A stretch of 64,000 bases of DNA from an uncultured Acidobacteriota bacterium (GCA_963827655.1 CAWHCF010000043.1:32001-96000); one strand, 5' to 3'; positions 941 to 55,595 are shown, counted from the stretch's first letter. Numbers and translations: made by a program. The notes: generated by a model not told the origin, from the letters alone.

Positions 941-977
941 GAAAAGCTTGTGTCACGCAACCGCGAAGGCGCAAAGC

Positions 978-1751: not shown

Positions 1752-1787
1752 AACCACAAAACGCGAAGACCCAAGAAACACCAAAAT

Positions 1788-4376: not shown

Positions 4377-4406
4377 ACCAGCGCCGCCACGAAGACGCGA
4401 AATCAC

Positions 4407-5915: not shown

Positions 5916-5931
5916 AAGGACACGTGTCAGT

Positions 5932-11326: not shown

Positions 11327-11419
11327 ATTGACGATTGACGATTGGCGACTATCGTGGATTAGTGCTCTGGCGTAGCCGCTCTCGCCAATCGTCAATCGTA
11401 AATCGTCAATCGTCAATCG
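11327..11419. repeat. MITE-like palindromic element: (GACGATT)n - core - (AATCGTC)n
   Basis: Inverted heptamer arms; core GTGGATTAGTGCTCTGGCGT shared 19/20 with the 14215-14314 copy. Confidence 0.85.
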
Positions 11420-19912: not shown

Positions 19913-19947
19913 CCGATTGCGGATTGCAGATTGCGGATTGCGGATTG
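19913..19947. repeat. (GCGGATT)n heptamer array
   Basis: CCGATTGCGGATTGCAGATTGCGGATTGCGGATTG directly after iolD stop; related copies at 39306-39340 and 45412-45428. Confidence 0.9.
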
Positions 19948-27076: not shown

Positions 27077-27232
27077 TGGTCATTGGTCTTAGTCATTTGT
27101 CATTGGTTCTGAGATGTCCAGAGACTGGCACTGCACGAGACGCGAGTCCGAGGTCCGAGTATGAATGATAAATGACCAATATGACAAATGACCAATGACA
27201 AATGACCAATCATGACCAATGACAAATGACTA
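27065..27232. repeat. Inverted heptamer arrays (CATTGGT)n ... (AATGAC(C/A))n
   Basis: GTCATTGGTCATTGGTCATTGGTC left arm, AATGACCAATGACAAATGACC right arm, about 55-bp spacer. Confidence 0.9.
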
Positions 27233-27310
27233 ACGAGCCGCTACCCTGGACCTCGCTAGAAGGTGAAACCGTCACCGGGAAGAAGCGAGGACAGCAAGAG
27301 GGAGGACCCG

Positions 27311-29737
27311 ATGGAATCTTTTGAGAAACTTGGCCTGTTTTATCTCGGGAAGCTGGTAAACCCCCAGTCCGGAACGCTTCAGAATGACTATCTCTTGTAC
27401 GACGCCAAGGACCTGGTGACACACGCGGTGTGCGTCGGTATGACCGGCAGCGGGAAGACCGGCTTGTGTCTTGGGCTGCTGGAGGAAGCCGCGATCGACA
27501 ACATCCCGGCAATCATCATTGACCCGAAGGGAGACCTGGGAAATCTATTGCTGGCGTTTCCAGACTTGAGGCCGGACGACTTTCGCCCTTGGGTCCAGGA
27601 AGACCAGGCAAGCAAAGCGGGCGTCTCTCTCGACGAGTACGCCGCCGCCGAAGCGGAGAAGTGGCGCAAGGGGCTCCAGGAGTGGGGACAGGACCCGCAG
27701 CGGATTCGCGCATTCAAGTCGGCCGCCGATTTTACCATTTACACACCGGGAAGCACCGCCGGTCTGCCGGTCTCGATCCTGAAATCCTTTGCCGCCCCTG
27801 CTCCGAACACCGATCTCGATCTGCTCAAAGATCGCATTCAAACGACCGCGTCAAGCCTGCTGGGCCTCGTCGGTATTCAAGCGGACCCGCTTCGCAGCCG
27901 AGAACACATCCTCATTGCCAGTGTCCTCGAACAGGCCTGGTCATCCGGCAAGGATCTGGACCTTCCTGCTTTGATACAGATGATCCAGAAACCTCCAATG
28001 CCGCGCATCGGTGTCTTTGACCTGGAAACATTCTACCCGGCGCAAGAACGTTTTCAGCTGGCATTGACGCTGAACAATCTGCTCGCGGCACCGGGCTTCG
28101 AGGCATGGATGGAAGGCGAGGGACTGGAAATCGATCGCATGCTGTACACAAAAGCGGGAAAGCCCAGAATGAGCATCTTTTCCATTGCGCACCTTTCCGA
28201 TGCCGAGCGAATGTTTTTTGTCACGATCCTGCTCAATCACGTGCTCGGCTGGATGCGCTCTCAACCCGGAACACCGAGCCTGCGCGCCATACTTTACATG
28301 GATGAGGTGTTCGGCTTTTTTCCTCCGGTTTCCGAGCCCCCTTCCAAGCGCCCCTTGCTCACCCTTCTGAAGCAGGCGCGGGCTTTCGGTCTTGGAGTCG
28401 TACTGGCAACTCAGAATCCCGTGGATCTGGACTATAAGGGCTTGTCGAATGCCGGTACCTGGTTCATCGGGAGATTGCAGACGGAGCGAGACAAGGACCG
28501 GCTGTTAGAAGGACTCGCAAGCGCCGCCGGCACAAGCGGAGCAGGATTCGAACCGCGCGCCCTGGCCGACTTGATATCGAAGCTCGGCCAGCGCGTTTTC
28601 TTGATGCAGAGCGTGCACGAAGAGCAGCCCACGATGTTCCAGACTCGCTGGGCGCTATCTTATTTGGCTGGACCGCTCACTCGCAGCCAGATCAAGCAAT
28701 TGATGCAGGACAGGAAACCGGTGAGTGAGCCTGCGATGCCGCAAGCCGTGCCCCAGGCTTCTGAGCCGGGGCCAGAGACATCCAAGGTCAGGCCGCAGCT
28801 ACCTCCCGAGGTTCGTCAGTTCTTTGCCGTCGCCCAGGCCCGGCCGGATTCCGAGGGGCAGCTGGCCTACCATCCCTTTCTTTATGCGTCTGCCAAAGTG
28901 CACATCATCAACAACAAGCTGGGAATCACGCACGCCCAGTCGCTGGCCCATGTAATCGAACTGCAGGAAGACATGAACGCCGCGCTTTGGTATCAAGCCC
29001 GGGAGCTGCCTGGGGAGCCGGACCAGCTTGGGCGTCAACCGTCGGAAGACGCGGCCTACCTTCCTCTCCCCGCGGCCTCCTTGCAGGGAAAACGCCTGGC
29101 AAGTCTGTCGAAGAGCTACATCGACTTTCTCTCCAAGCAGCATCAACTCACACTGTGGAAAAGCAATCTTTTTAAACATACCTCTCAGCCCGGGGAGCCG
29201 GAGAGGGATTTCCGTATCCGCCTGCAGCAACTGGCTCGCGAACGGCGGGATTTCGAGGTGGCACGTCTGCGCCAGCGCTTCGCCACCAAGATCGGCACGC
29301 TCCAGCGGCAATTAATGCGGGCCGAGCAACGCGTCGAACGGGAGCAGGAACAGTACGGCCAGCAGAAGGTGCAGACCGCCATATCGGTGGGCGCGACCCT
29401 GCTCGGGGCAGTATTCGGGCGGAAGACCACCAGCATCGCTAACCTCGGAAGAGCCACAACCGCGGCCCGCGGGGCGAGCCGGATTTCGCGGGAGAAAGAA
29501 GACATCGAGCGTGCTCAACAGCAGCAGCAAGCTACCCGGGCGCAATTGGATGCCATCGAGAAACAACTGAGCGAGGAGGCAGACCGGCTGGCGCAGACGT
29601 ATGATCCGCAGGCCGAAACTCTGCAAGAAGTGATCGTGCGTCCGGCGAAGGCAGACATCTTGTTACAGGATTTCGGATTGCTCTGGATCCCCTACTGGCA
29701 TTCCAAAGCAGGCAATCCCGAACCGCTCTACCGCTAA
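27311..29737 (+). CDS. HerA/FtsK-like P-loop ATPase (DUF87/DUF853-like) with C-terminal coiled coil
   Basis: [39 protein letters not shown]; GGAGG RBS. Confidence 0.88.
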
Positions 29738-29841
29738 GGCGCAAAGACGCGAAGAATGGCCAGGAACCTGGTGAAAAGGACGTGGTATGTGCGCCGCAAC
29801 TGTGGTTAAATCGTTGTGATCCACCTATCCTCCTGGAGGTT

Positions 29842-31110
29842 ATGATGAGACGGTATCTGAAGCTGGGAGCCTTGGGGCTCGGAGCATCAGCGATTGCCCT
29901 GACCGGTACCGTGGCAGCCGGACCGGCAAATACAAAGGTCACCTTTACGAAGGATGTCGCTCCAATTCTCTTCAAGCGCTGCGTCGAATGCCATCGCCCC
30001 GGAGAAATTGCCCCGATGTCGCTTCTGAGCTACGAGCAGGCGCGCCCGTGGGCGAGATCGATCAAGGAGAAGGTGGTGGAGCGATCGATGCCTCCCTGGC
30101 TGGCCGATCCGCAGCATACCCATTTCGAGAACGACCGTCGGCTGCCTCAGAAAGAGATCGACACGCTCGTGGCCTGGGCAAACGCCGGCGCCCCCAAGGG
30201 CGACGACAAAGACCTCCCGCCTGCGCCGAAGTTCTCGGAAGGCTGGACGATCGGAAAGCCCGATCTGGTCCTGACCATGCAGGAGGAATTCGAAGTGCCG
30301 GCCGAAGGGGTAGTGCCCTACAAATACATGACCATCCCGACCAACTTTACCGAGGATAAGTGGATTCAAGCCCTGGAAATCCGTCCCGGGAATCGGAGTG
30401 TGGTCCATCACGTGATCGCCTCCGTTCAGGATCCCGGCGCCGGTCAGCCTCAGCGCAATCGAGACCCTCAGGCGTCCGGCGGCAGCGCCACGAACATCCA
30501 GAGGGGCCGCGAGAACTTCCTGGGCGGCATCGCACCCGGCGACTCGGCGGATGTCTTTCCACCGGGAACCGCCAAGCGCATTAAAGCAGGTTCAAACATC
30601 GTGCTTCAGATGCACTACACCACCAATGGCGTCCCGACCCGGGATCGAACCAGCGTCGGTTTTGTTTTCGCAAAGGAACCGGTGCACAAGACGATCGTGA
30701 CCGGCAACGCAGCCAACGCGCGCTTTGTGATTCCGCCCGGCGATCCCGGCCATGAGGTGACATCGAGCACCACGTTCGCCGAGGACGTTCACCTGATAAC
30801 TCTGATGCCGCACATGCACGTCCGCGGTAAGGACTTCCTGTATACGGCGATCTACCCTGATGGGCGGTCTGAGGTGATCCTGCGAGTCCCGCGCTACGAT
30901 TTCAACTGGCAGCTGACTTACAAGTTCGCCAAGCCGCTTTCCTTGCCAAAGGGTACCCGCATCGATTGCGTCGCTCACTTCGATAATTCCACCAATAACA
31001 AGTACAACCCCGATCCGACCCGCGAAGTGCGCTGGGGAGATCAAACCTGGGAAGAGATGATGATCGGGTGGTTTACTTATACGCGGGACGCGGAGCAGCT
31101 CGGAAATTGA
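29842..31110 (+). CDS. Cytochrome c-fused copper type II (PHM/DBH-like) monooxygenase homolog, copy 1
   Basis: Signal peptide, CVECH heme site, VVHH, QMHY, PHMH, YDFNWQ, EEMM copper-ligand motifs. Confidence 0.8.
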
Positions 31111-31252
31111 CGATTGACGATTGACGATTGACGGTGGAATAGTTACGATTTCATCGCAATTGACGATTTACGACTTGGGCAGATACTGACGATTTGACGA
31201 GTGGACTGACGAGGTCGGGAAATCGTCAATCGTAAATCGTCAATCGTCAATC
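31106..31252. repeat. Inverted GACGATT/AATCGTC heptamer arrays between the two monooxygenase genes
   Basis: TTGACGATTGACGATTGACGATTGACG ... AATCGTCAATCGTAAATCGTCAATCGTCAATC. Confidence 0.9.
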
Positions 31253-31269
31253 CAACTGAGGGGATTACC

Positions 31270-32562
31270 ATGAAGTTTAGCCGTGGTTTGTACGCTAGCC
31301 TGATTTGCCTTACCTTCGCGACTATTTTCGCCCATGCTCCAAGCGCGGCCGGGGGACCGGCAGCCGCTGTCACTTTCAACAAGGACGTGGCTCCGATTCT
31401 GCAGAGGAGCTGCATGACGTGTCACCGTCCCGGCGAAGTCGCGCCCATGTCCCTTCTGACTTACAAAGAAGTGCGCCCGTGGGCCAAGTCGATCCGGGAA
31501 GTCGTGCAGGAGCGCAGGATGCCACCCTGGCCGGCAGATCCGCGCCACGGCGAGTTTTCCAACGACCGCCGCCTCTCCCAGCGCGAGATCGAGACCATTA
31601 CGGCCTGGGTTGAAGGTGGGGCGCGGGAAGGAGACGCCAAAGACCTGCCGCCGAATCCCAAGTTTGTCGAGGGTTGGAGCATCGGTCAGCCGGACGTGAT
31701 CCTCGCCATGACCGAGGAATACAGCGTGCCGGCCGATGGCGTGGTGCCGTACAGGAATTTTGTGGTCCCCACCAATTTCACGGAAGACCGTTACGTGCAG
31801 GCGGCGGAGATCCGGGCGGGAAACCGCGGCGTCGTCCACCATGTGATCGTGAGCGTGCTGGCTCCCACACGAGGGAAGCTCCCTTCGGCCGGGCTGCTAC
31901 GACAAGAGGAAGATCTGACGTCCGAAACAACGCCGGGGCGCGCCACGGTTTCCGGCCTGGTAGGGACGGCTCCGGGGATGCCTCCGCTGATGCTGCCACC
32001 GGGGCAGGCCAAGCTGATCAAGGCAGGCTCGGCGCTCAACTTCCAGATGCACTACACGCCGAACGGCGAGGCGACGAAGGATCGCACCAGTGTCGGCCTT
32101 ATTTTCGCGAAAGCTCCGGTGCAGAAACTGGTTCAAACTGGAGGCGCATTTGGCCGCAATCTAGCGATACCACCGGGCGATCCCAACCATGAGGTCAAGT
32201 CCTCATATACCTTCAAGGAAGATGCCCACCTCACCGGATTTATGCCGCACATGCACTACCGCGGTAAAGATTTCGAGTACCGCGCTGTATTTCCTGATGG
32301 AACCACCAGAATTCTTCTCTCGGTTCCGCGCTACGACTTCAACTGGCAGCTACACTACAAGATCAAAAACCCGATCGCCATACCCAAGGGCACGCGCCTC
32401 GATTGCACCGCACACTTCGATAATTCGGCAGCCAACAAATACAATCCCGATCCGTCCAAGCTGGTCCGGTGGGGTCCCCAGACCTGGGAGGAGATGATGA
32501 TAGGCTGGTTCGACTATACCCTCGATAGCCAGAATCTGACTACCCAGACGGCATCCAAGTAA
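31270..32562 (+). CDS. Cytochrome c-fused copper type II monooxygenase homolog, copy 2
   Basis: CMTCH, VVHH, QMHY, PHMH, EEMM; clear tandem paralog of copy 1. Confidence 0.8.
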
Positions 32563-32581
32563 GAAAAGGAGAGCAGATCTG

Positions 32582-34079
<1,498 letters not shown>

Positions 34080-34087
<8 letters not shown>

Positions 34088-35813
34088 CCGTCGTTCCACG
34101 GCGCTCTTGGGGTTCCTTTGCGTCGTCGCGTCTTCGGGGTTGAGTTCTTCTGCGGCACTCGACATCAGGCTCCGTGAAATAACTGCGGAGCGCCTCAACC
34201 AGGCCGAGAAGGAAGCCGGTAACTGGCTCACTTACGGCGGAACCTATCGAGCGTGGCGCTACAACCCACTCGACCAGGTCAATGCCTCGAATGTTCACCG
34301 GCTTCGCGCGGCCTGGGCCTTCCAGCTTGGAGAACTCGACGGTGGATTGCAGGCCACGCCGCTGGTGGCTGACGGTGTCATGTACGTCGTAGGCCCGGAA
34401 GACCGCGTTTTCGCGTTGGATGCAGCCAGCGGCAAACCGATCTGGAGCTACTTCTACAAGTACCCCAGAGGGCAGCGCTACGGCTATGGCAACTGGAGCC
34501 GGGGCCTCGCCCTTGGTCACGGCAGCGTTTTTCTCGGAAGCCTTGACAACTTCGTGGTCGCGCTCGATGCCACAACCGGCGAGGAGCTGTGGAAGGTCAA
34601 TGTCGAGGACAGCCGCAAGTTTGGTTGCAACATCACCGGCGCGCCTCTTGTGGTAAAAGATCTGGTACTGGTTGGCTCCACTGGAGGCGACTCAGCGCAT
34701 CGCGGCCACATCGTCGCGTTTGACTGCAAGACAGGAAAGCAACGCTGGCGGTTCAATACGATTCCAGGTCCAGGCGAGAAAGGAAACGAAACCTGGAGCG
34801 GCGACAGCTGGAAGTTCGGCGGAGGTGCTGCCTGGCTGACCGGCTCATACGACCCCGAGCTGGACCTCATATACTGGGGCATCGGAAATCCCGCGGCCGA
34901 TTTCAATGGCGAATTGCGCAAGGGGGACAATCTATACACAGATTGCATCGTGGCGTTGAAACCCGCCACGGGTGAGGTTGCCTGGCATTTCCAGGCAATC
35001 CCTCACGACCTGTGGGACTACGACGCTGCCTACGAGTGTATTCTCCTCGATCTGCCGGTGGATGGAAGATCGCGCAAGCTCCTGCTTCACCCTAACAAAG
35101 GAGGCTTCGTCTGGGTCCTGGATCGCACGAACGGCGAGTTTATCGCCGGATGGAAATACATGGACAGCCTCAACTGGAGCACCGGTCTTGATGCCAGGGG
35201 CGTCCCGCAAGGGAGAAACGAACCGGAGCTCGGCAAACCGAAAGTAATCTGTCCGAGTTGGAGTGGAGCGCGCAGCTGGAATCATGCCGCATACAGCCCA
35301 CGGACCGGACTGCTTTACAATATCGGCGTTGAATGGTGCGGCGAGTACACCGTCAGACCTGCGAAGCCCAGCGAAGGACATGGTTATCTGGGCGGGTTCG
35401 TGACCAGGGCGTATCCTCCATCGGGAAAAGTCACCACTCACCTCGATGCGCATGACCCGCTCACCGGCAAGAAGAGTTGGACCTTCGAATCGAAGTATCC
35501 TCTCCTGGCTTCCCTTCTCTCCACCGGAGGCGACCTTGTTTTCACGGGCAACCCTGAAGGAGATTTTTTCGCGCTCGATGCGAAGACGGGCAAGAAGCTG
35601 TGGAGCTTTCCCACGGGCTCCGGTCACCGCGGATCACCGATCACATACGCGGTGGGAGGCAAGCAGTATGTGGCAACTCCTTCGGGCTGGGGCGGCCTCG
35701 CAGCGCGGGCGCTGGCCGCGTATTGGCCGGAGACCGCACAGCTGACTTCGGGAGCGACCATCTTTGCGTTTACTCTGCCAGAGAGCGATACAGCAACCAA
35801 AAAATTACGATGA
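34080..35813 (+). CDS. PQQ-type beta-propeller dehydrogenase (alcohol dehydrogenase-like), exported
   Basis: NWLTYGG, QATPLV, ALDA..G..W repeats, [29 protein letters not shown]. Confidence 0.88.
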
Positions 35814-35869
35814 CGGCCAAGCGTCTTTGCGCCTTAGCGGTAGATCATTGCTTGGCGGGAGGCATCTAC

Positions 35870-36793
35870 ATGCAGCGGATTTTCGCAGCGGGAACTGGAA
35901 TTCTCTTCCTCGGCTTCTTATCGGGAGCGGCCGCTCAGCAGGATAGATTGCAGGGACGCTGGGAGGGGACGGTTCAGGCCCCACAGGGACAGATGCCTGC
36001 CAGAGCTTCCTTCAAGAAGGAGGGGGACGCGTACAGGGGCACAGTAAGCGGATTACGCGGCGACGTGGCCTTCAAGGAAATCAAGCTTGATGGGGCCAGA
36101 GTGATTGCCATTGCAGAAGTACAGACGCCTCAGGGAAACCTCCCCGTCAACTATGAGTTCCTGCTCGAAGGGGAAACTCTAAAAGGAAAGGCAGAGGCCA
36201 GTTTCGCCGGCCAGACCTTTTCTTTCGTTTTCGATCTGAAGCGGATCTCCACCGAGGTCCCTGATCTCCAGGCCTCGCCCCCGCAGGCCGCGCCTCAGCC
36301 GCAGGGAGCGCGCAGAGAATCAGTGCCTCAGCCTTTGCAGCAGCAGAAGCTTGAATATTTCCAGGGCCAGTGGAAATTCAAATGGCTGGGGATGGAAAGC
36401 CTCCTGGGTCCCGGTGGACCCAGGGAAGGGACCCTGACTTACACTCCGATTATGGAAGGGAAATTCCTGGAAGGACGGGCCGAAGGAAAGTCCGAGGGCG
36501 GTGATTTCCGGGAGATCAATTACCTGACCTGGGATCCCGACGGAAAGGTTCTGACGTCCTTTGAACAGCGGGCTGCGGGAGCCGCGCTGCTCGGATTGGG
36601 AGACTGGAAGAGCCCGATAGCCATTCGTTTCACTATCACACCCTTGAAGGTCAAGGGACAGAGCCTTCAGCTCAAGCGAGTCGTAAACATTGTCGCCGCT
36701 CATTCCTATACCGTGACCGAGGAATTGTCAGTGGATGGAGGGCCGTTCCAGAGATTGGGCAACGGAGTTTTCACAAGGGTTGAAGCGAAGTAG
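35870..36793 (+). CDS. Secreted hypothetical protein with two probable beta-barrel domains
   Basis: GGAGG RBS, signal peptide, G.W.G motifs starting each domain, Pro/Gln linker. Confidence 0.7.
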   Translation: MQRIFAAGTGILFLGFLSGAAAQQDRLQGRWEGTVQAPQGQMPARASFKKEGDAYRGTVSGLRGDVAFKEIKLDGARVIAIAEVQTPQGNLPVNYEFLLEGETLKGKAEASFAGQTFSFVFDLKRISTEVPDLQASPPQAAPQPQGARRESVPQPLQQQKLEYFQGQWKFKWLGMESLLGPGGPREGTLTYTPIMEGKFLEGRAEGKSEGGDFREINYLTWDPDGKVLTSFEQRAAGAALLGLGDWKSPIAIRFTITPLKVKGQSLQLKRVVNIVAAHSYTVTEELSVDGGPFQRLGNGVFTRVEAK

Positions 36794-36795
36794 CC

Positions 36796-37164
36796 ATGGT
36801 TCGTAGCAAGAACCAATGCCAGGCCGAGAAGAAGGGCCGTGCCATAAGGGGATGGAAACGGCTCGTGATCTTCTCCGCGCTAGGCGTTGTCCTCAGCGCG
36901 GGCAGCTTGATGGCGTATCAAGCATACATGACCAAGGCGAAGAAGTTTGGCGCCGAGGATTGCCTGTTCTGTCACGTACAGGAAAATGGCGGCGTTGGCT
37001 GGAATGAACGGGGCGACTGGCTGATCGACGAGAAGGCGAAGCGCAAGGCGGAGAAGATTGACGTGGACTGGCTGATCGACTACAACCCGGACGGAAACGA
37101 CGGGAGCAAGAAACCGCCGGCTGAGGAAAAGAGCGAGAAGAAGCCGGCCTTCGCGATCTTTTAG
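36796..37164 (+). CDS. Small monoheme c-type cytochrome
   Basis: Signal/TM segment and single CLFCH. Confidence 0.65.
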   Translation: MVRSKNQCQAEKKGRAIRGWKRLVIFSALGVVLSAGSLMAYQAYMTKAKKFGAEDCLFCHVQENGGVGWNERGDWLIDEKAKRKAEKIDVDWLIDYNPDGNDGSKKPPAEEKSEKKPAFAIF

Positions 37165-37246
37165 GCGCTTATGGCTCCATTGTTACCGGCATGTTCATCC
37201 AAAACAAACATCCTCATGGCCGCGCCATTCTGTTACACTCGCTCGC

Positions 37247-37468
37247 ATGAAGACGCCTGATCTGTCAGAGATATTCCTTTCCGATCCCGACATTCTTGGG
37301 GGTACTCCGGTTTTTGTCGGCACCCGGGTGCCTGTCCAGAGTCTGTTCGAACACCTCAAAGCGGGCGATTCGATCGACGACTTCCTCGAAGGATTTCCGA
37401 GTGTCCGGCGCGACCAGATAATCGCGCTGCTCGAAGTGTCAAGCCGGGAGCTTTTGCGAACTGCCTGA
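37247..37468 (+). CDS. DUF433 antitoxin
   Basis: DPDILGGTPVFVGTRVPV...FLEGFPSV; TG-n-TACACT 7 nt before ATG suggests leaderless mRNA. Confidence 0.9.
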   Translation: MKTPDLSEIFLSDPDILGGTPVFVGTRVPVQSLFEHLKAGDSIDDFLEGFPSVRRDQIIALLEVSSRELLRTA

Positions 37469-37469
37469 G

Positions 37470-37790
37470 GTGAAAATCCTCCTCGACGAGAATCTCGACT
37501 GGCGCTTGTGGCGCGAGTTGCCGGGGCACCCTGTCCAATCCGTGTCCTTGATCGGATGGGCGGGACTCAAAAATAGCGAACTGCTGAAGCGCGCCAGTCG
37601 AGAATACGATGTGTTGATTACCATGGACGCCAACCTCGCGTTCCAGCAAGACGTCGCCCAATTCGAAATTGCAGTCATAGTCTTGAAGGCCCCCAACAAC
37701 CGTCTTGCCGAGACGGGCCCACTGATGCCTAAAGTCCTGGCACTGCTGCCCACCCTCAAAGCGGGCACGCTTACAATTGTTTCCACATGA
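37470..37790 (+). CDS. DUF5615 PIN-like toxin
   Basis: MKILLDENL, GWAGLKNSELL, LITMDANL. Confidence 0.88.
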   Translation: MKILLDENLDWRLWRELPGHPVQSVSLIGWAGLKNSELLKRASREYDVLITMDANLAFQQDVAQFEIAVIVLKAPNNRLAETGPLMPKVLALLPTLKAGTLTIVST

Positions 37791-37832
37791 CAGGCGACTT
37801 TCGAGAGCATTTGCAGTGAGTCTCGGAAGAGT

Positions 37833-39329
37833 CTAAAGCCCGTCCAGTGAGAAGGCGTAGAGTTTGTTATTAGGTTTACCGACTCGAAGGAAGGTGTAGC
37901 CCGACCCGACGTAGAGCACGCCGTCCACCACGCTCGGGCCGCCGCCGACAGCGCCGCCGGTATCGAATTCCCATAGAATCCGTCCGTCCTTGCCATCATA
38001 GGCCCGGATGAAACCTGCCGAGCTTCCCGCGAAAACCAGGCGATTCTCGGCAGGCCCTGTGACGACGATGGGTCCATAGTTCGGTCGTTTGTCCGGAGTC
38101 GGAGTATTCCATAGAATCTTGCCGGTAGCTCCATCGAGCATCACGATTGCGCCCCCTTTCATGGGATGCGCCTGAGCGACGTACAGCCGCTCTCCATCGG
38201 TTGCGCTGCCGAATTGTACGCCGCCGAGCGCGCTTCCTGGCCCGATTTCGGTTTTCCAGACCGGGGCTCCGGAGGCGGCGTCCACGGCGTGGACCCATCC
38301 GCTCTTCTGCGCGGCGCCCAGGACCTTGCTGCCGTTGGGACCCTTCAGCGCCAGCGGCGTCGTTCCGAAATCGAAATCGGGGCCGCAATCGCGGCAACCT
38401 ATGACGAACACGTCGGAGGGTCTTGCCTGGTACGACCACACCAGCTTCCCCGTATCCATGGTGATCGCTACGATCGAGTCGACAAGCTTGGTATCTTCGC
38501 CCGAATACTGATTGCCGGTCGTGAAATAGATGCGGTTCGCTGCCGGATCCAGCCCGACCGACGACCAGACCGCGATACCGGAAGGGCCAAGGATCGCGCG
38601 CCCGCTCGCATCTTCGCCCAGCTTTTTAGGCTCTTCCGGGATGGTGTAAAAACGCCACAACTGTTTGCCGGTCTTGGCATCGAACGAAGCCACGCCGCCG
38701 CGAAAGGAACAGCAGGAATAGTCCTTCTGTCTTCGAGGCTCTCCTTCTTCGTGCGACGAAACCCCGATGTAGATTCGGCCCTGGTGAACCTTGGGCGAGC
38801 TGGTGACGACTGCTTTGGGATGGGGATCGATTCTCTCCGACCATTTAAGGGTGCCGGTTCCGGCGTCAACGGCATGAAGACGTCCAGACAGATCACCGAA
38901 GTACACGACGCCGTTGTCGTAGGCTGCGCTGGCGCGTGACGGAATGCCGCAGTCGTATTCCCAGACTTTCTTGCCGGTCCTGGCATCGACAGCGTACTCC
39001 TTGCCGTCCCACGATCCGAAATAGACGATGCCGTCCACGACAATAGGCTGGCTCGAGACGTCCCCGCCGGTCTCGAAGATCCACTTGGGCTTCAGTCGTG
39101 AGATGTTTTCGGGCGTGAGAATTTTTTCGTCAGGATTGTAATGCGTGCCAGCTATGTCCCGGCCGAACATGGGCCAGTTCGTGGCGGGAGATTTTGACCG
39201 CTGTTGGACCGATCGTGAGAAACCAGTCAGCGTGCCAAGAAGCAGGGCCAGGCCCACCAGACAAATCTTCGCTTTTCTTAGCGTCTTCGTGTCTTCGTGG
39301 TTGTCCAATCTGCAATCCGCAATCCGCAA
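37833..39329 (-). CDS. PQQ-binding beta-propeller protein (polyvinyl-alcohol-dehydrogenase-like); start uncertain
   Basis: WPMFG, GVSSHEE, CCSFRG, TTGNQY, GPDFDFG, AQKSG. Confidence 0.85.
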   Translation of the reverse strand: MRIADCRLDNHEDTKTLRKAKICLVGLALLLGTLTGFSRSVQQRSKSPATNWPMFGRDIAGTHYNPDEKILTPENISRLKPKWIFETGGDVSSQPIVVDGIVYFGSWDGKEYAVDARTGKKVWEYDCGIPSRASAAYDNGVVYFGDLSGRLHAVDAGTGTLKWSERIDPHPKAVVTSSPKVHQGRIYIGVSSHEEGEPRRQKDYSCCSFRGGVASFDAKTGKQLWRFYTIPEEPKKLGEDASGRAILGPSGIAVWSSVGLDPAANRIYFTTGNQYSGEDTKLVDSIVAITMDTGKLVWSYQARPSDVFVIGCRDCGPDFDFGTTPLALKGPNGSKVLGAAQKSGWVHAVDAASGAPVWKTEIGPGSALGGVQFGSATDGERLYVAQAHPMKGGAIVMLDGATGKILWNTPTPDKRPNYGPIVVTGPAENRLVFAGSSAGFIRAYDGKDGRILWEFDTGGAVGGGPSVVDGVLYVGSGYTFLRVGKPNNKLYAFSLDGL

Positions 39330-39341
39330 TCCGCAATCGGG

Positions 39342-40877
39342 TTAATCCGCGCGCACCCAACCGGCCACGCTGTCGGTGGAGTAGTAGGCGGCTTCATCCG
39401 TGAAGGCTCTTTTCTTGAATTTGTCGACCGCGTCGGCGGGAAGCGCCTTACGCGCCGCTTTGACGTCGACCTTGTACAATTTGGCTGCGTTCAGCCCGAA
39501 GACCCTGGCCTTGTCTTCCTTGGTAAGCTTCTTGTAACCGAACTTTTCCGTCATCTCGTCGGTGAACTGGAAGCGTTTGAACAGATCAATGGCCCACTGA
39601 GGAGAACCCCACCAGAGGCAGTCGGTGCCCCAAACGACGTGGTCCGACCCGTAGTGCTTGATGTTCTTGCCCATCAAGTGCTGGCACATCTCGGGATTCT
39701 CGACAGCCAGCAGGCCAAACGACGATCCGATCTCGCAATACACATTCGTGATTTGAGGGTTACGCCGCTTGATATCCATCAGCACGTTGTGCCACAAGAA
39801 ATCGCCGGTGGTCGGGTCGAACTGGTTTTCCTTGATGTAATTCGGCTCGTTGGGACCATGTTTAAGCGCCGAATGATAGATCACAAAGGTCAAATCGGGA
39901 TTCTCCAGGGCCGCTCTTTCTACATCCTTGGGGTTTGCCAGATGGCCCAGAGTGCGCGATTGATAAGAGAAACCCTTGTGGACGCTGAAGTGCCTGATTC
40001 CAAGCTCCCGGGATTTCTCGTAAAACTTGGCCGACATCTCGTCATCGAGCTGAAAGCCGCCGCCGCTGGCGCCGGGATCTGTGTGGCAATACCACTTCCA
40101 CGAATCGATCCCATAGAGTTTCGCCTCTCGCTCCATCTGCTCGTAGAGCGCCGGCCAGTCCGGTTTATCGGTAGACTTGTTCCAGTAGTGATTGGGCGCG
40201 ACATTGCCCTGACACAGCGCGCGCTGCGAACCCGCCAGGTCATTGATGTCTTTCATGCGTCTCGACATTAACCAGCTCGGAAGTCCTGCCCTGCTGCGCG
40301 CGACACCCTCGAGCACTTTCCCATTTTCGTCTCGCTGCTTCTCCCGGTTGGGCACGCCGCTGATCACCGCCACGCTTGTTTCACTGTCGAAGAAGATTTC
40401 TTGAATGAAATTGTGGAAGCTGTACGCCTCGGCGTCCGCCTTCAGGTTGACACCCATGTTCTTGAGAAACTCATACTGCCGGAAACCACCTCCCACTCCT
40501 GTTCGCTCCTGCCCGATGTCATAGGTGTTGGTGAAGTGGGTCTGCACATCGATGATGAAGTATTCGCCCTTCGGCCATTTCTCGGCCGTCGCGGCGGGTT
40601 CAAAAGCTTCAACCGGGTCGACTTCCCAATAATTTCCAAACACCGTGTTGCTGGCTAGCAGGGCGGTCGCGAATCCCATCGATGTGCGCATGAAGTCACG
40701 CCGTTCCATTCCCACTCGTTTGGCGTTTTCTTCACCCCAGCTTCCAATCAGATGTTCGAGCCGTTTCTGTTTCTTGTTCTGCGGCCGCGGGAGGATCTCT
40801 TCGTTGGAAACCACCTGGGTCGGTATGGGAGAACAAACGCCTTTTTTTCTGTCTCGCGCATATTTTGGAATCCACAT
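39342..40877 (-). CDS. Amidohydrolase family protein, copy 2 (close paralog of 32582-34087)
   Basis: Long identical blocks e.g. [48 protein letters not shown]; AGGAGG RBS. Confidence 0.87.
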
Positions 40878-41032
40878 ATGACTTCCTCCTTCGGCGACCA
40901 ACGCTACCGTGAAGTTTTCACGATACTAGGGGCGCGCCCGAGATGAAGTCAAGCAGGAAGCCTCGGTAACATTCGCGTCTGCGGCTGAGTGATCAACCAG
41001 GTAGCGGAGTTAGGGACGTCTTTTCGTAACTT

Positions 41033-44000
41033 TCAAAAAACCAGCTTCAGGCCGAACTGCATTTCACGTGGATTGTTGACCGTGTTCGTGATTCTCCCGT
41101 AAGCTCCGCTGGCAGGGTTCAGCGTCGGGGCGCCGAACTGGGCTCGATTGAGAGCATTGAACATCTCCCAGCGGAATTCCGTGCGAAAGCGGTCCGTTAT
41201 AGCAATCTTCTTTCCCAGCGCAAAATCCCAGTTATTGATGGCGTCTCCCTGAAGTCGCGCCAGGCGCACGGATAAGGTGCGAAGGGTAAACGCCGGCTGC
41301 ACGGCGAACGCCTTCGGGATTGAACCATCCGTCGATGGAACGCTCATCAGGGCCGAGACGTGGATCCTCGCCCGTGTAAACCGTGCCCGAGGGCAACAGC
41401 AGCGCCTGGCCGCTCTGGAATACCTGGATGACCGAAACCTGCCATCCGCCCAGCAGCTTCCCTTTTACCCCGGACTGGTCGCGATAAGGCAAATCCCAAA
41501 CGCCCGCGAAGGTGAATCGGTGCGGGCGCCACAGGTCACCGATTGCCTTGGAGGGAGCGGGATCACTGTCGTTCAGGAACTGAACCTTCTCGATCTGACG
41601 CTGGAAGGTGTAGCTCGAAAGGAATTGAAAGCCACGGGAGAAGCGTTTGGTGAGCGAGGCCTGACCGCCATGGTAGTACGCCCGCCCGATAGTTTCCCGC
41701 TGAATCTGAAGCTGGCCCACGTGGGGGAAGGTCGTAAGCAGATTCTGTTTCGAGATCGTCGGCGCGCCCAGCGTTAGATTGCTGGGGATAAGGCCGAAGA
41801 AGGGGTTCGTAACGCGCTGGCTCAGGCCGGCGCCGAGCGCGAGATGTTCAGCAGGCAGATAGTGCAGCTCGCGATTCATTTCGCCGCCGCTGCCCGCGCC
41901 GTTGTTTCCAACGTAAAGGCTCTGCGCAGTGCTGCCGACGTAGTTCACCTCGAGGCGCAGATTCGAGCTCAGTTCCTGCTGGATGCCGAGTTCCCAGCGT
42001 TCGTTGTAGGGCGAATGGCGAAACTGGGAGTAGACGGCAACATTGGTTCCAAGCAGGGTCAGAGAGGCCCTGCGAATTGCCGGGAGGCGCAATGAGTCCG
42101 TTGGGGAACGGATTGCTTAGCAGGTCGGCGGGCGTGATTCCGTCCAGCGTCGATACCATCGGGGTATCGGAGGAGAAACCGTTCTGGCGCACAAACGGGG
42201 CCGGCCAGTAGCTGTAGAAGAGTCCGTAGCCGCCGCGCACCACCGTTTTGTCGGTAGCGCGGTAGGCGAAGCCGAATCGCGGGCTCCAGTCGTTCATGTC
42301 GGTCGGGGCATAGCGGCGGTTGTCAGGGGTGGCAAAGAGCAATCCACCTTCGACTCGAAAGAGGTCGACGGGCAGCTCGGGAATCGGGGACTGCGCATAG
42401 TTGGCGCGGGCCTGCGCCTCGATCGGATTGGGCTGGCCGAACGCCCAGCCAATGACGGAGCGGTTGAACCGCTCGGTCGCGGCCGGGTTCAGCTCGTAGC
42501 GGATTCCAATGTTGAGGGTCAGTCGCGACGACACTCGGATGTCATCCTGGAAATAGAAGCCATAATAGGGAGACTGCGGTGCGTTGGAGACGTTCAGGGT
42601 CGTGAAGCCGCTGGCGGGAGTGGCGACCAGGAACGACGCGATGCCGGACCCGATGGCCGATCCGGTCGTGTTAGGATCCGGCCCTTGGGTGAACCCGCGA
42701 TTGAAGGTGAAGTTCCCGGCCGGCGAATTGGCTCCCTGCGAGTTGTTCTGCTTCACCTGGGTCTGATGTCCGAATTTCAAGTTATGCCGTCCGCGGATCA
42801 GGTTCATGCTGGCCGACCAGGCGAACGTATTGGTGTGCTCGTACCAGCTCCCTTCGAGCGCGCCGACAAACACCATGTCGCTGTTGCTGAGCCGCGGCAC
42901 CTTGACCTGCTGAAGCGAGTTGACGAAGGAAGGAGCAAACCCGAGTGTGGAGATATCGTAGTCAGGCTGCGTCCCCTCCTGGGTCCATCGGGTGAAGCCG
43001 CCGTTGACTGTGAGCATTGTGGTCGACCCGAATGCAATGGTATCTCCGACTCCAACCGAAGTCTGGACCCGGTTGTTCAGGTTCAAGCCACCGACCGGTA
43101 CCTGGTAATCGCTGGCCTGCGGGGTCTTCGACATCGAAAAGCGCCCGAACAGCCGTTGGGTCGTCCCCAGACTGTGATCGAGCCGGACGGTGAAGTTGTC
43201 GATCGGCTGCTCAGTCACCACCACCTTGGCATGATTGTTGGTACCACTATTGGGATCGCCCGGCCGGTTCGGGAGAGGCACGAACGTCTTGATAATGTTC
43301 TGTGCCACCGGGTCCATCCGGTTTGACGGGATGACGTTGCCGGGAAACTGATCCCGGATGAAGCGGCCGGCCTGGGCGGGATCGGGTCGGGTGGAGAACG
43401 GGTCATAGATCCGGATCAGCTGCCCGGCCGCATTGAATGTCTGCGAAAAATCGCCCCGGCGTTCGAATTCCGAAGGAACGGTAAAAATGGTATTGCTGGG
43501 CCGGGTTGATTTCACTCCTTCGTAATTGAAGAACCAGAAAGTCTTGTTCTTGATGATCGGCCCCCCGACGGCAGCCCCGAACTGGTTGTACCGCAGCGCC
43601 GGCTTGGCAATTCCGGACCGATTGTTGAAGAAGCTGTTGGCATTCAAGGCGTCGTTACGCAGAAACTCATAGACGGTCCCCTGGATTCGATTGGTCCCGC
43701 TCTTGGTGGAGACGTTGATATAGGCGCCGCCCGAGTGCCCGTACTCCGAGTCGAACGAGTTGGTCTGGATATTGAATTCCTGAACCTGATCGACCGGCGG
43801 AATGTAGGCTACGCGGTCCGAGACATTGTTGGGAACGCCGTCCATCAGGAACTCGTTCATCCGCTGATTGGCCCCGTTGGTGGAAAAATAAGACGTCCCG
43901 CTGATCTCGTTGAGGGAGCTTGGCGCCGGATTTGCCGTCTGAACGATCCCCGCGGAAAGCACCGCCAGCTGCAGGACATTCCGCCCGGCGAGCGGCAAAT

Positions 44001-44430
44001 CTGCTACATAACGATTATTGACGCTCGTACTGATTGATGCCGTGCTCGTCTCCAGCACGGGCGCGTCGGTCTGGACCTCGATCACTTCGCGTACCTCTCC
44101 CACTTCCAGCCGGATATCAACGCGTGATCTTGCGTCCGAGCTCGACCGTGATCGTCTGCACGAACTTCTTGAATCCTGCGAGCTCGGCCTCCAACGGTAG
44201 TTTCCGACCGGGACCAGGTTGAAGAAGAAGACCCCCTGCTCGTTCGCCAACGCGGTTCGCGTTTCGTTGGTGTTGGTATTGGTGAGGACCACGTTCGTGC
44301 CAGGAAGTATCGCTGCCGAAGTGTCGGTGACGGCGCCATCAACCGACCCGGTCGGGACTACCTGGGCCGTTGCGGCCGATACCATGAAAACAAGCAGCGC
44401 GAGAGAGACGATAGAAGCTGACTTGGTCAT
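41033..44430 (-). CDS. TonB-dependent receptor, several frameshifts (about 44190/44125, 42065, 41290)
   Basis: LPLAGRN, SEYGHSGG, KSGTN, NDWSPRFG, C-terminal PREMQFGLKLVF. Confidence 0.88.
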
Positions 44431-52400: not shown

Positions 52401-52651
52401 TTGAATCCGGCGCTTTCGACGTTGATATCGTACGTGCCAATACGCAAGGGACCGACCGTGTAGGCCCCCGTATCGGATGTCTCGGTCATCCGGGTCTCGT
52501 TCGTATCACGATTGACTACAACGACCCTTGCGCCCGGAACGGCAGCGCCGGAAACGTCCGTGATCACGCCGGTGATCACACCCATGTCCTGCTGCCCCAG
52601 AGCAACTCCCGTGGTCAGCAGAAACCCAAGAACTGTCGCAAGCTTCCTCAT
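49416..52651 (-). CDS. TonB-dependent receptor, frameshift about 50555
   Basis: LPLNGRNF, SAEFGRNSG, KSGTN, NNWAPRVG, C-terminal PRQMQFALRLTF; AGGAGG RBS. Confidence 0.9.
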
Positions 52652-52799
52652 GTGCCTCCTCCTGATCAGGATGGAATTCCGGGAAATCGATATGGATGCC
52701 ATTGTACGTCAGAAACGTTCCGGATCTTCGCGTTTCTTTTGCATGTTTGTGGGCGACAGCGGTTTACGCGCGGACCGGTAGTTGATAACATTAGGCTCT

Positions 52800-55525: not shown

Positions 55526-55595
55526 AGCTGTGCTACGAAACAAATACCACCAGGACACGAAGACAAGAAACGCCAAGAAAGATTATACCCGTGAA

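Follow-up and report, generated by a model that had tools for sequence, protein, structure and literature searches.

Two convergent gene units of an uncultured Acidobacteriota bacterium, both encoding exported proteins, may together form a cofactor-autonomous periplasmic oxidative module in which an amidohydrolase acts as the genetic hub, a reading to which we assign a probability of roughly 45%. The units lie at 29842..44430 of the 64,000-nucleotide stretch analysed here (the window), with the following features:

29842..31110, plus strand: hCuMO1, a predicted exported CxxCH domain fused to a two-copper fold of the PHM/DBH type
31106..31252, no strand: intergenic inverted heptamer arrays, ATTGACG x4 and AATCGTC x4.6
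31270..32562, plus strand: hCuMO2, a second predicted heme-fused PHM/DBH-type copper protein
32582..34087, plus strand: AH1, an Amidohydro_2 TIM-barrel protein
34080..35813, plus strand: PQQ1, a PQQ alcohol dehydrogenase of the methanol/ethanol family
35870..36793, plus strand: a DUF1579-like exported protein (PF07617, E = 4.4e-5, below cut-off)
36796..37164, plus strand: a small CLFCH ORF of 122 aa with a hydrophobic N-terminal stretch
37833..39329, minus strand: PQQ2, a PQQ-repeat beta-propeller of 498 aa from a different subfamily
39342..40901, minus strand: AH2, a paralog of AH1 (PF04909, 63.9 bits)
41232..44430, minus strand: a TonB-dependent receptor (CarboxypepD_reg and OMP_b-brl_4) in two ORFs

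In the proposed module, hCuMO1 and hCuMO2 would act as non-coupled, PHM/DBH-type monooxygenases with two coppers, in which the protein's own N-terminal c-type heme, rather than ascorbate, passes on the reducing electrons, and would hydroxylate a C-H bond of a periplasmic substrate. AH1, as a metal-dependent TIM-barrel enzyme that groups structurally with ACMSD/LigW/LigJ/LigY/LigI, would use hydrolysis, hydration or decarboxylation either to convert the hydroxylated product or to prepare the substrate. PQQ1, as a lanthanide-type quinoprotein alcohol dehydrogenase, would oxidise an alcohol or aldehyde function of the pathway and deliver its two electrons to a c-type heme; within the operon, only the hCuMO heme domains offer well-supported hemes of this kind. 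On the opposite strand, the unit of receptor, AH2, and PQQ2 would add another AH/propeller pair, which may have an outer-membrane import route of its own. The plus-strand genes are tightly packed, with 19 nt between hCuMO2 and AH1, an overlap of 8 nt between AH1 and PQQ1, and a third gap of 2 nt, and AH1 is probably co-transcribed with hCuMO2. Export signals, judged by eye on the translated ORFs, agree with the initial annotation, with Sec-type N-termini on hCuMO1/2, PQQ1/2, the DUF1579-like protein, and the receptor, and a twin-arginine motif in both AH1 and AH2, which are presumed to be periplasmic.

The tandem paralogs hCuMO1 and hCuMO2 (29842-32562) share 59% identity over 422 residues. 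The hCuMO1 ORF opens at a GTG at 29782, with the ATG at 29842, just 5' of the signal peptide, being the probable start. The Cu2_monoox_C model matches hCuMO1 below the Pfam cut-off (E = 0.0044), and a profile built from the family alignment matches rat PHM (E = 1.3e-8) and DBH (E = 3.7e-8). hCuMO2 carries CxxCH at residues 48-52, M84, H190/H191, H261, H327/H329, and M409; the 46-sequence family alignment shows no variation at C48, C51, H52, M84, H261, H327, H329, and M409, and at least 90% conservation at H190/H191 (hCuMO2 numbering). The HH, H, HxH, and M ligands fall on the VHH, QVHY, HTH, and DEM motifs of PHM in the profile alignment, presumably at PHM positions H107/H108, H172, H242/H244, and M314, bearing out an earlier description of two tandem CxxCH proteins with full ligand sets. 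A Foldseek search with the AlphaFold model of hCuMO2 (pLDDT 90.8) returns PHM (E = 3.4e-15, TM 0.65) and DBH (E = 2.3e-13). Judged by the ligand alignment and the predicted structure, both proteins genuinely have the PHM/DBH fold, with a c-type heme motif fused to it, and would represent bacterial kin, equipped with a heme electron inlet of their own, of PHM and DBH, the copper enzymes with which animals make hormones. To our knowledge, a complete CuH His3 plus CuM His2Met set is found solely in C-H hydroxylases.

The heme-copper family comprises 19,095 clusters at 50% identity, with no Pfam or NCBIfam model matching it at cut-off, no solved structure matched by plain sequence search, and no paper on it found by full-text literature search. 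This genome encodes ten copies, with only the tandem pair adjoining an AH gene and the other eight lying away from any AH. Neighbours are heterogeneous at the seven other loci checked in this genome, among them the peptidases S9 and M20 near some paralogs, and C37 is the sole copy of those eight with a PQQ-like match within 12 kb, at a distance of ~4 kb. An AhpC/TSA-redoxin domain, the commonest fused partner, is present in 86 of the 120 long family members among those listed, whilst none of these 120 is fused to a PQQ or Amidohydro_2 domain, and redoxin fusion points to thiol-based electron input or peroxide chemistry as the usual mode of the family. The source names of the redoxin-fused forms, “peroxiredoxin” or “thiol-disulfide isomerase”, together with the many copies and very diverse contexts, would suit a periplasmic redox-protection or oxidase/peroxidase-type protein whose heme and copper reduce O2 or H2O2, its proximity to AH reflecting shared regulation rather than shared chemistry. 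We consider this improbable, given that the full set of six copper ligands is conserved across the family and that adjacency to one specific enzyme family is retained in two separate hCuMO groups. On a rapidly built tree, most of the copies next to AH form two groups (support 93 and 92), and each window copy is placed in one of these. AH adjacency needs 4 label changes on this tree, whereas shuffled labels need 14 on average, and none of 500 shuffles came down to 4.

Both amidohydrolases exceed the PF04909 (Amidohydro_2) cut-off of 26.4 bits, AH1 scoring 52 bits, and AH2 is 67% identical to AH1 with a conserved MWI start at ~40877. The twin-arginine of AH1 lies at residues 59-60, after a conserved N-terminal extension of 57 residues, and the invariant His/Asp residues H114, H291, H326, D403/H404, and D410 occupy barrel positions. 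No PDB sequence matched AH at E ≤ 1. By fold, the nearest structures are 4qro (1.4e-8), 2dvt, 6dxs, 4qrn, 5vn5, 4i6k, and 7pwy, placing AH nearest to ACMSD-type and aromatic-acid decarboxylases, LigJ, LigY, and LigI; these structural neighbours are mostly decarboxylases, hydratases, and C-C hydrolases, with lactonases making up only some of them, and hint at a phenolic or aromatic substrate. Four AH genes are present in the genome, the third paralog (C14, ~37% identical) having a PQQ-repeat propeller directly upstream. AH was found in only 3 of 41 related genomes, the window's own counted, which marks the locus as accessory, its parts having perhaps come together recently.

The neighbourhoods of AH were compared across 80 AH-encoding loci in other genomes, from 416 AH relatives in total. 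Of the 68 loci with enough upstream DNA, 20 have hCuMO immediately 5' of AH in the same orientation, each in a different assembly, and of the 24 AH loci holding any hCuMO, 20 have it in this position. Chance adjacency is estimated by us at ~0.1–0.3% (~10 copies in ~8 Mb), and the linkage is well beyond chance. Amongst the 37 full-context loci of at least 19 kb, PQQ genes are found in 6/13 with hCuMO and 1/24 without (Fisher p = 0.004), and DUF1579-like genes in 5/13 and 0/24 respectively (Fisher p = 0.003), both p values being uncorrected for kinship. Together, the adjacency and these co-occurrences indicate a real, recurring periplasmic cluster of variable composition. The same statistics show that partners other than those of the window are commoner, with a VOC/glyoxalase protein directly downstream of AH in 38 of 74 loci and a hexaheme cytochrome in 38 of 80, among the commonest AH neighbours and both absent from the window's AH locus. 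DUF1579-like homologs are found in 10 of the 80 loci overall, and in 67 of 80 no PQQ gene is within reach. The PQQ slot beside AH is filled by three different PQQ subfamilies across genomes, in keeping with a general function, for instance supplying electrons.

The probable metal hydrolase that directly follows hCuMO in 20 of 68 loci, with its invariant His/Asp set and with the six copper ligands at PHM-equivalent positions, also recalls the two-step chemistry of PHM and PAL. In such a dealkylating or amidating pair, hCuMO would hydroxylate a peptide or an N/O-alkyl compound at a carbon adjoining either an amide or amine nitrogen or an ether oxygen, AH would cleave the carbinolamide like the zinc lyase PAL, and PQQ1 would oxidise the aldehyde hydrate and return two electrons. 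Peptidases near some copies (S46 in L008, and those near the paralogs in this genome) would suit a peptide substrate, however peptidase neighbours are inconsistent overall, AH is not homologous to PAL, which is a beta-propeller, and the fold neighbours of AH act on aromatic acids and ring-cleavage products. Such a pair therefore appears a poor prospect.

The amidohydrolase-then-PQQ order noted initially occurs twice in the window, convergently, as AH1-PQQ1 on the plus strand and AH2-PQQ2 on the minus strand. The assignment of the two propellers to different subfamilies likewise holds, with PQQ1 passing NCBIfam TIGR03075 (555 bits against a cut-off of 480), PQQ2 falling below it (167 bits), and an identity between them of 27–29%. 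Over its full length, PQQ1 can be aligned with 6zcv (E = 1.5e-107) and the XoxF structure 6dam (E = 3.2e-90). Its WDYD aligns with WDFD of 6zcv and is taken by us as a lanthanide-type Asp motif, whilst the vicinal Cys-Cys of 6zcv is replaced by GY and an Asp stands where the aligned enzyme carries the GGE Glu. PQQ2 matches 1yiq over residues 46-370 (E = 8.4e-33) and, from its repeat propeller, is a putative PQQ binder; homologs 58–63% identical to it lie beside AH in four other loci (L038, L055, L070, and L074). A cytochrome c gene follows the nearest relatives of PQQ1, namely the homolog in L008 and a 62% identical paralog in its own genome (C20), which makes a c-type heme the expected acceptor. 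The paralog lies between a 3-keto-disaccharide hydrolase and the cytochrome c gene, here diheme, without hCuMO, a context that hints at a glycosidic substrate.

That context also bears on whether the units are juxtaposed but independent, with no dedicated electron chain. Each AH/PQQ pair would then be self-contained, for instance oxidising an alcohol or sugar and then hydrolysing a lactone or ester, or running hydrolysis before oxidation, whilst hCuMO would act on another substrate with electrons from a general periplasmic cytochrome c or redoxin pool. AH is paired with PQQ-repeat propellers apart from hCuMO in AH2-PQQ2, the C14 paralog, and L055; PQQ1's closest paralog lacks hCuMO; and the scattered hCuMO copies and usual redoxin fusion point the same way. 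There is also a precedent in the periplasmic PQQ glucose dehydrogenase, which makes gluconolactone according to bioRxiv 10.1101/2022.06.07.495086. Independence is nevertheless unlikely, though it deserves serious weight, as it leaves unexplained an hCuMO-AH adjacency far above expectation, the enrichment of PQQ and DUF1579-like genes in AH loci having hCuMO, and the tight packing of the plus-strand unit, and lactonases are a minority of the AH fold neighbours.

The supply of PQQ raises a further question. The genome has ~18–19 PQQ-type propeller loci, yet pqqC was not found in the 90% complete genome (by a search run without a positive control) and pqqE had no match there at cut-off, so that a PQQ-dependent step would need scavenged cofactor. 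AH might then serve the cofactor itself, salvaging or unmasking PQQ or a PQQ adduct imported by the TonB-dependent receptor, and AH is indeed found beside PQQ-repeat propellers of four different subfamilies. TonB-dependent PQQ uptake is described for E. coli in bioRxiv 10.1101/2022.06.07.495086. We regard such a role as very improbable: most AH loci have no PQQ gene in reach, the commonest AH partners are VOC proteins and multiheme cytochromes, the genome has only four AH genes for some 18 propeller loci, and the pqqC search had no control.

The arrays at 31106..31252, between hCuMO1 and hCuMO2, can form a long hairpin (-66 kcal/mol, z = -7.3, with 0 of 200 shuffles folding as well), and in soil contigs they show a very high summed depth with numerous loose ends, which identifies a widespread repeat. 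The DUF1579-like gene starts at either 35810 or 35870. The monoheme cytochrome proposed initially retains its single CLFCH motif, however the ORF has no family match in Pfam or NCBIfam, homologs in none of the 80 AH loci, and, with this query, a homolog in only 1 of 40 related genomes, which keeps CxxCH. Its start is uncertain, as soil contigs carry 56 other letters in place of 36793-36893, and it is possibly a membrane-anchored, poorly conserved monoheme protein. The upstream TonB receptor is likewise present, but is split by a frameshift near 42063 into ORFs 44430-41848 and 42092-41232, which carry profile positions 1-510 and 512-753 respectively, with single-base indels relative to soil contigs at 42063, 41315/41316, 44124, and 44192; the genome has ~152 such loci, and among the 80 AH loci elsewhere only 7 include one.

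The joint system envisaged in the initial annotation thus keeps its PHM/DBH fold and its AH linkage and loses a conserved cytochrome link. Electron flow from the dehydrogenase through a cytochrome and the heme to copper is a plausible proposal, however the eight hCuMO copies elsewhere and the redoxin as commonest fusion count against it. Against the module as a whole we count the 48 of 68 AH loci with no directly upstream hCuMO, the VOC and hexaheme partners elsewhere, and the missing vicinal Cys-Cys of PQQ1 along with the PQQ synthesis genes not found. In its favour, a third hCuMO copy of the window (55576-54244) comes directly after a multiheme cytochrome gene.

Compared with ACMSD-type enzymes (2,6-dihydroxybenzoate decarboxylase, LigW, IDCase, the hydratase LigJ, C-C hydrolase LigY, and lactonase LigI), AH shares the Amidohydro_2 domain and fold, with its invariant His/Asp residues at the barrel strand ends, but has ~170 extra residues, the twin-arginine after the strongly conserved extension, and redox-protein neighbours. 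Strand 1 carries QxH, whereas the amidohydrolase superfamily usually has HxH or ExH. Relative to the lanthanide- or calcium-dependent PQQ alcohol dehydrogenases, which pass electrons to cytochrome c (6zcv/6zcw, an ethanol dehydrogenase that we take to be PedH, and XoxF 6dam), PQQ1 keeps WD-x-D and differs in the two substitutions noted above; a cytochrome c gene follows its paralog and L008 homolog, whereas PQQ1 itself lacks the usual cognate cytochrome gene beside it.

With PHM, DBH, and tyramine beta-monooxygenase (PF01082 and PF03712), the hCuMO proteins share the two-domain beta-sandwich and six aligned copper ligands, despite an identity to PHM of ~16–18% in Foldseek alignments and Pfam scores under the gathering cut-off. 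They differ in the added N-terminal c-type heme domain (CxxCH and Met), in many relatives an AhpC/TSA-redoxin domain as well, and in being bacterial, periplasmic, and multi-copy with no evident ascorbate source. A further comparison is with LPMOs, whose copper is a single histidine-brace, and whose redox partners in fungi include cellobiose dehydrogenase and PQQ pyranose dehydrogenase. There is no homology between the two groups, the hCuMO heme being fused to a two-copper PHM-type enzyme to which we infer electron transfer. In PMC8981238, a small c-type cytochrome is described as reducing the copper of a bacterial LPMO and activating catalysis with less H2O2 leakage than ascorbate. The pairing of an LPMO with CjX183, the c-type cytochrome domain of Cellvibrio japonicus Cbp2D, follows the same logic as that proposed here, in which a heme protein takes the place of a small-molecule reductant for an extracytoplasmic copper oxygenase.

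The initial annotation described tandem heme-fused copper proteins at this locus, an observation that is real and constitutes the most solid part of its proposal. The two proteins (hCuMO1 and hCuMO2, of a family referred to here as hCuMO) share 59% identity and head a tightly packed row of plus-strand genes extending through a 122-residue ORF, with the features of the locus and the window arranged as follows.

Features of the window (coordinates, strand, description)
27263-29737, HerA/TraD-like ATPase, cytoplasmic, directly upstream of the exported row
29782-31110, plus, hCuMO1 ORF, probable start ATG 29842
31270-32562, plus, hCuMO2
32582-34087, plus, AH1, Amidohydro_2 protein, starting 19 nt past hCuMO2
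34080-35813, plus, PQQ1, PQQ-repeat propeller, 8-nt overlap with AH1
35810 or 35870 to 36793, plus, DUF1579-like protein
36796-37164, plus, 122-residue ORF
44430-41232, minus, TonB-dependent receptor, converging on the plus-strand row
40901-39342, minus, AH2, second Amidohydro_2 protein
39329-37833, minus, PQQ2, second PQQ-repeat propeller
32582-32760 (AH1 residues 1-60) and 40901-40700 (AH2), conserved 57-residue block preceding the twin-arginine pair
1790-1967, 11327-11419, 14215-14314, 27065-27230, 31106-31252, heptamer arrays
19915-19947, 39306-39338, single heptamer arrays

An AlphaFold model of hCuMO2 (pLDDT 90.8, pTM 0.86) displays the two-domain beta-sandwich core of PHM/DBH-type enzymes, with Foldseek returning PHM as the best match (3mll, E 3.4e-15, probability 1.00, TM(target) 0.65 over ~300 columns), ~30 matching PHM entries, and human DBH (4zel, E 2.3e-13). 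The hCuMO family profile also detects PHM (E 1.3e-8) and DBH (E 3.7e-8) in the PDB, placing the HH, H, HxH, and M motifs of hCuMO on VHH, QVHY, HTH, and DEM of PHM, the CuH and CuM ligands of that enzyme, at all six ligand positions. Across 46 aligned sequences (hCuMO1, hCuMO2, and 44 relatives; hCuMO2 numbering), residues C48, C51, and H52 of the CxxCH motif, M84, H261, H327, H329, and M409 are invariant, and H190 and H191 are at least 90% conserved. The three-His CuH set (HH + H) and the CuM set (HxH + Met) are thereby both present, the clustering of their ligands following from homology rather than measured distances. Plain sequence searches of the PDB failed for both hCuMO2 (phmmer, nothing at E up to 10) and AH1 (no match at E up to 1), with matches arising from profile and fold searches. 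In Pfam, Cu2_monoox_C (PF03712) scores 17.0 and 19.2 bits on the two copper proteins, short of the gathering cut-off of 23; neither protein has a PF01082 match, and NCBIfam contains no match to them. The putative heme domain, a candidate class I c-type cytochrome domain with CxxCH and a distal Met, likewise falls below the Pfam cut-offs (Cytochrome_CBB3 17.9 versus 27 bits, Haem_bd 21.5 versus 27), with helices at residues 36-47, 65-80, and 104-115 of the hCuMO2 model and weak family profile matches to PDB heme domains (E 0.0016-0.011). We consider it probable, at roughly 0.7, that the hCuMO proteins are monooxygenase-type enzymes fed through their own heme.

Work on PHM/DBH-type copper monooxygenases has, to our knowledge, been confined almost entirely to the animal enzymes, which obtain their electrons from ascorbate. 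Scanning all 1.84 billion representatives with HMMER yielded 19,095 hCuMO clusters (50% identity) at E up to 0.001, 12,546 at 1e-10, and 3,901 at 1e-30, whose members carry database names such as “cytochrome c”, “thiol-disulfide isomerase”, “mono/diheme cytochrome c family protein”, and “hypothetical”. Full-text literature searches, with subscription journals outside their scope, turned up no work on PHM/DBH-like enzymes that are bacterial or heme-fused, the literature matches to PF03712 being animal studies, nor, from the amidohydrolase side, any on this locus. The window documents a very large bacterial family in which the whole two-copper site is kept, joined within one protein to a putative c-type heme and often to a redoxin domain too.

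AH1 and AH2 share 67% identity and exceed the Amidohydro_2 (PF04909) cut-off of 26.4 with 52.3 and 63.9 bits respectively, with further Amidohydro_2 clusters the sole result of a Protein Atlas query with AH1. The AH1 model (pLDDT 77.1) is a TIM barrel resembling ACMSD, LigW, and LigJ, its nearest folds comprising dihydroxybenzoate decarboxylases, LigW, IDCase, LigJ, LigY, a LigI-like hydrolase, and ACMSD (4qro, E 1.4e-8, probability 1.00; 4i6k, TM(target) 0.68), with ACMSD-type matches spanning E 1.4e-8 to ~2.6e-6 among the matches listed. These neighbours hint at a phenolic or aromatic substrate. Residues invariant among 28 sequences, including paralogs of 40-42% identity, include D110, Q112, H114, H291, H326, E373, D403, H404, and D410. 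ACMSD-type metal ligands are HxH or ExH on strand 1, His on strands 5 and 6, and Asp on strand 8; the candidate counterparts in AH are Q112-x-H114, H291, H326, and D410, the first position being Gln. Residues S16, P17, P19, T20, S24, N25, E26, E27, P30, and Q33, which precede the twin-arginine pair R59-R60, are also invariant, a degree of conservation that is unusual for a signal peptide. This 57-residue block may offer a chaperone a cytoplasmic handle, or it may be the portion of an uncleaved Tat anchor that stays in the cytoplasm.

The window's own genome (8.18 Mb, 53 contigs, 90% complete) encodes 10 hCuMO copies at 9 loci and 4 AH copies, with the two families joined at the window locus only. 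A PQQ-like match lies ~4 kb from the hCuMO copy on contig C37, and the neighbours checked at seven other hCuMO loci vary, including an S9 peptidase, Zn-ADH, an ECF sigma factor with FecR, an M20 peptidase, SMP-30 lactonase, PIG-L deacetylase, ceramidase, and a receptor. Of the AH paralogs, the one on C14 is immediately preceded by a PQQ-repeat propeller, and the one on C29 comes after a receptor. The window also holds a third hCuMO copy (55576-54244), which is split and more divergent (41-45% identity in two tblastn pieces). It directly follows a gene for a multiheme c3/c7-type cytochrome (56402-55596), and close by lies the gene for a protein (52782-53879) bearing three heavy-metal-binding HMBD repeats.

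Beyond this genome, scanning a single genome for each species gave 416 AH relatives. The 80 best loci (70-78% identical) were retained; they belong to Blastocatellia, Bryobacterales, other Acidobacteriota, and some Steroidobacteraceae. With adjacency defined as hCuMO on the same strand within 600 nt upstream, and counted in the 68 loci with at least 1500 nt of upstream DNA, hCuMO directly precedes AH in 20/68 loci from 20 different assemblies, where we estimate a chance frequency well under 1% given ~10 copies per 8 Mb; hCuMO occurs anywhere in 24 of the 80 loci. A quick, midpoint-rooted tree of 42 hCuMO sequences, drawn without the split copies of this genome (C1, C2, and 54244-55576), places 18 of 19 AH-adjacent copies in two groups, one with hCuMO2 (SH-aLRT 93) and one with hCuMO1 and the own-genome C35 copy (92), the AH-adjacency label changing 4 times compared with a shuffled mean of 14. 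We lean towards hCuMO and AH acting in one pathway.

The commonest AH neighbours are a two-domain VOC/glyoxalase protein, directly downstream in 38/74 loci, and a hexaheme cytochrome c, present in 38/80 (counts from separate tblastn queries). Neither is encoded at the window locus, their sole own-genome homologs residing on C41 and C22. PQQ and DUF1579-like genes are enriched where hCuMO is present.

Co-occurrence with hCuMO among the 37 AH loci of at least 19 kb (Fisher p ignores kinship)
PQQ: 6/13 loci with hCuMO, 1/24 without, p 0.004
DUF1579-like: 5/13 loci with hCuMO, 0/24 without, p 0.003
Hexaheme cytochrome: 8/13 loci with hCuMO, 13/24 without, p 0.74

Three PQQ subfamilies take the PQQ position at the AH loci of different genomes, with PQQ1-like genes in L008 and L009, PQQ2-like genes in L038, L055, L070, and L074, and a third, full-length type in six AH loci. 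Several loci contain a longer row, in the order hCuMO, AH, VOC, the DUF1579-like protein, a diheme CCP/MauG-like protein, PQQ, a 183-residue protein, the hexaheme cytochrome, and a 98-residue protein. In L038, L070, and L074 (about 1-7300; Blastocatellia), four or five tandem hCuMO genes precede those for a PQQ2-type propeller, AH, and an Amidohydro_1-type protein. The combination of hCuMO with PQQ and the DUF1579-like protein is one recurrent version of the AH cluster. AH itself occurs in 3 of 41 genomes related to the window's, its own included, and the cluster is therefore accessory; the AH homolog in one relative (G002), considered and set aside, has no hCuMO and no VOC, only a PQQ gene ~7 kb off. 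The hCuMO-AH adjacency and the enrichment of PQQ and DUF1579-like genes with hCuMO support the system proposed initially, but its composition varies and VOC and the hexaheme cytochrome are commoner partners of AH. The description that fits best is that of a periplasmic redox cluster which recurs, in variable form, around an amidohydrolase that has not been studied.

The 98-residue protein, present in 29 of the 80 AH loci, may be a dedicated AH chaperone; however, its own-genome homolog sits with the hexaheme cytochrome on C22, near cytochrome oxidase genes and away from every AH. This acidic protein and the c3-like hexaheme cytochrome form a conserved pair, convergent or adjacent, lying beside cytochrome oxidase subunits I and II in L096 (own genome, C22, 9465-15392) and elsewhere beside AH-VOC.

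Two further components of the initial proposal fare less well. The monoheme cytochrome is the 122-residue ORF, which possesses a single CLFCH motif and no family match in Pfam or NCBIfam; with 12 CxxCH motifs in the 52,988 residues of the window's six-frame ORF segments, the odds of a chance motif in 122 residues are ~3%. A homolog retaining CxxCH occurs in 1 of 40 related genomes and in none of the 80 AH loci, and the ORF was rejected as a conserved link. The TonB-dependent receptor is present, albeit split, but is judged weak as a specific component, given ~152 such loci in the genome and its occurrence in 7/80 AH loci. The HerA/TraD-like P-loop ATPase (824 residues, with a long coiled C-terminal part and weak family matches; DUF87, 25 bits) was also considered as a member, and is left out of the unit because a homolog is found in only 1 of the 80 related loci.

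Several genes of this genome are split into two frames, namely the receptors at 41232-44430 and 49416-52702 and the third hCuMO copy in the window, and further hCuMO copies at C1:48354-49554 and C2:41932-43147. The first receptor is not one continuous barrel ORF, with OMP_b-brl_4 profile positions 1-510 and 512-753 falling on two overlapping ORFs in different frames and a frame break near 42063, where an RNA-library contig lacks one base; this split reflects either a mistake in the assembly or a genuine frameshift. As soil contigs differ from the window receptor by single-base indels (42063, 41315/41316, 44124, and 44192), assembly indel errors are suggested for the split genes in preference to gene decay. 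RNA-library contigs (Logan, run X16, records 19 and 21; ~93-95% identity) cross the hCuMO2/AH1 and AH1/PQQ1 junctions, evidence that shows neither a single transcript nor an expression level and may include DNA carry-over. A promoter and terminator scan gave no clear boundaries, with terminator-like sites fewer than in shuffles. The intergenic spaces hold tandem heptamer arrays of the ATTGACG or GCAATCC type. Most of these lie in inverted pairs, separated by ~50-90 nt and capable of folding into long hairpins; the one in the hCuMO1-hCuMO2 spacer folds at -66 kcal/mol (z -7.3). Array positions in soil metagenome contigs show very high summed depth and many loose ends, and the repeat is therefore widespread.

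With respect to the dehydrogenases, PQQ1 passes TIGR03075, the model for PQQ-dependent dehydrogenases of the methanol/ethanol family (555.1 bits, cut-off 480.05), and aligns over its full length with the ethanol dehydrogenase 6zcv (E 1.5e-107) and XoxF (3.2e-90), whilst PQQ2 fails (166.8 bits), being a shorter propeller under every cut-off that resembles the first ~310-325 residues of quinohemoprotein dehydrogenases. Relative to 6zcv, PQQ1 keeps WDYD, has GY in place of CC, and Asp in place of the Glu of GGE; WD-x-D comprises the catalytic Asp and the extra Asp of lanthanide-type enzymes, and a vicinal Cys-Cys is a further feature of this dehydrogenase family. The NCBIfam family “acido-empty-quinoprotein” is among the sub-threshold matches of PQQ1. 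Searches of the own genome, at 90% completeness, gave no match to pqqC (a search without a positive control among 14 control genomes) and none to pqqE at cut-off, so any PQQ would need to be imported. With ~18-19 PQQ-type propeller loci in this genome, PQQ may be scavenged by the organism or be dispensable for some of the propellers. A 62% identical PQQ1 paralog (L090, on own-genome contig C20, 8795-12066) comes after a 3-keto-disaccharide hydrolase (PF06439) and before a diheme cytochrome c, with a sulfatase and an S9 hydrolase nearby, a context which hints that the PQQ1 subfamily oxidises glycosides.

The initial annotation further proposed that electrons pass from dehydrogenase to cytochrome, heme, and copper, replacing ascorbate. 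In L008, a 58% identical PQQ1 homolog followed by a cytochrome c lies divergently, adjoining hCuMO-AH. The window operon lacks the cytochrome that accompanies the PQQ1 relatives on C20 and in L008, and the hemes of hCuMO1 and hCuMO2 appear to be its only well-supported c-type hemes, a combination that provides the best, albeit indirect, support for this chain. The c-type cytochrome CjX183 is reported to reduce a bacterial copper oxygenase (LPMO; PMC8981238), and offers a precedent. Among the 982 long hCuMO proteins (754-2150 residues, E up to 0.001), 86 of the 120 listed contain AhpC/TSA or Redoxin domains, others being tandem doublets or containing TPR, EF-hand, LRR, or hydrolase domains, and none of the 120 contains a PQQ or Amidohydro_2 domain. 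This family-wide preference for fused redoxins speaks against a dedicated PQQ route, and PQQ1 as the electron source is doubtful.

The most ambitious arrangement would join hCuMO, AH, and a PQQ dehydrogenase in one redox cycle, as a self-fuelling, ascorbate-free periplasmic copper monooxygenase operating via its own heme, which we regard as improbable. The heme-fused enzyme would hydroxylate a C-H bond, the amidohydrolase would process the hydroxylated product, and a lanthanide/PQQ dehydrogenase would oxidise the new alcohol or released aldehyde, returning via the c-type heme precisely the electron pair required for the following hydroxylation. The conserved pairing of hCuMO with one unstudied Tat-type amidohydrolase, and its co-occurrence with PQQ genes, provide a handle on substrate and electron path. 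Should hCuMO hydroxylate soil polymers or their fragments, it would represent a new oxidative enzyme class in Acidobacteriota carbon turnover and a source of reductant-independent C-H hydroxylation catalysts. If the self-fuelling cycle holds, a family of >19,000 sequence clusters would be opened to study, and the locus would constitute a bacterial counterpart of both PHM/PAL and the LPMO-dehydrogenase couple.
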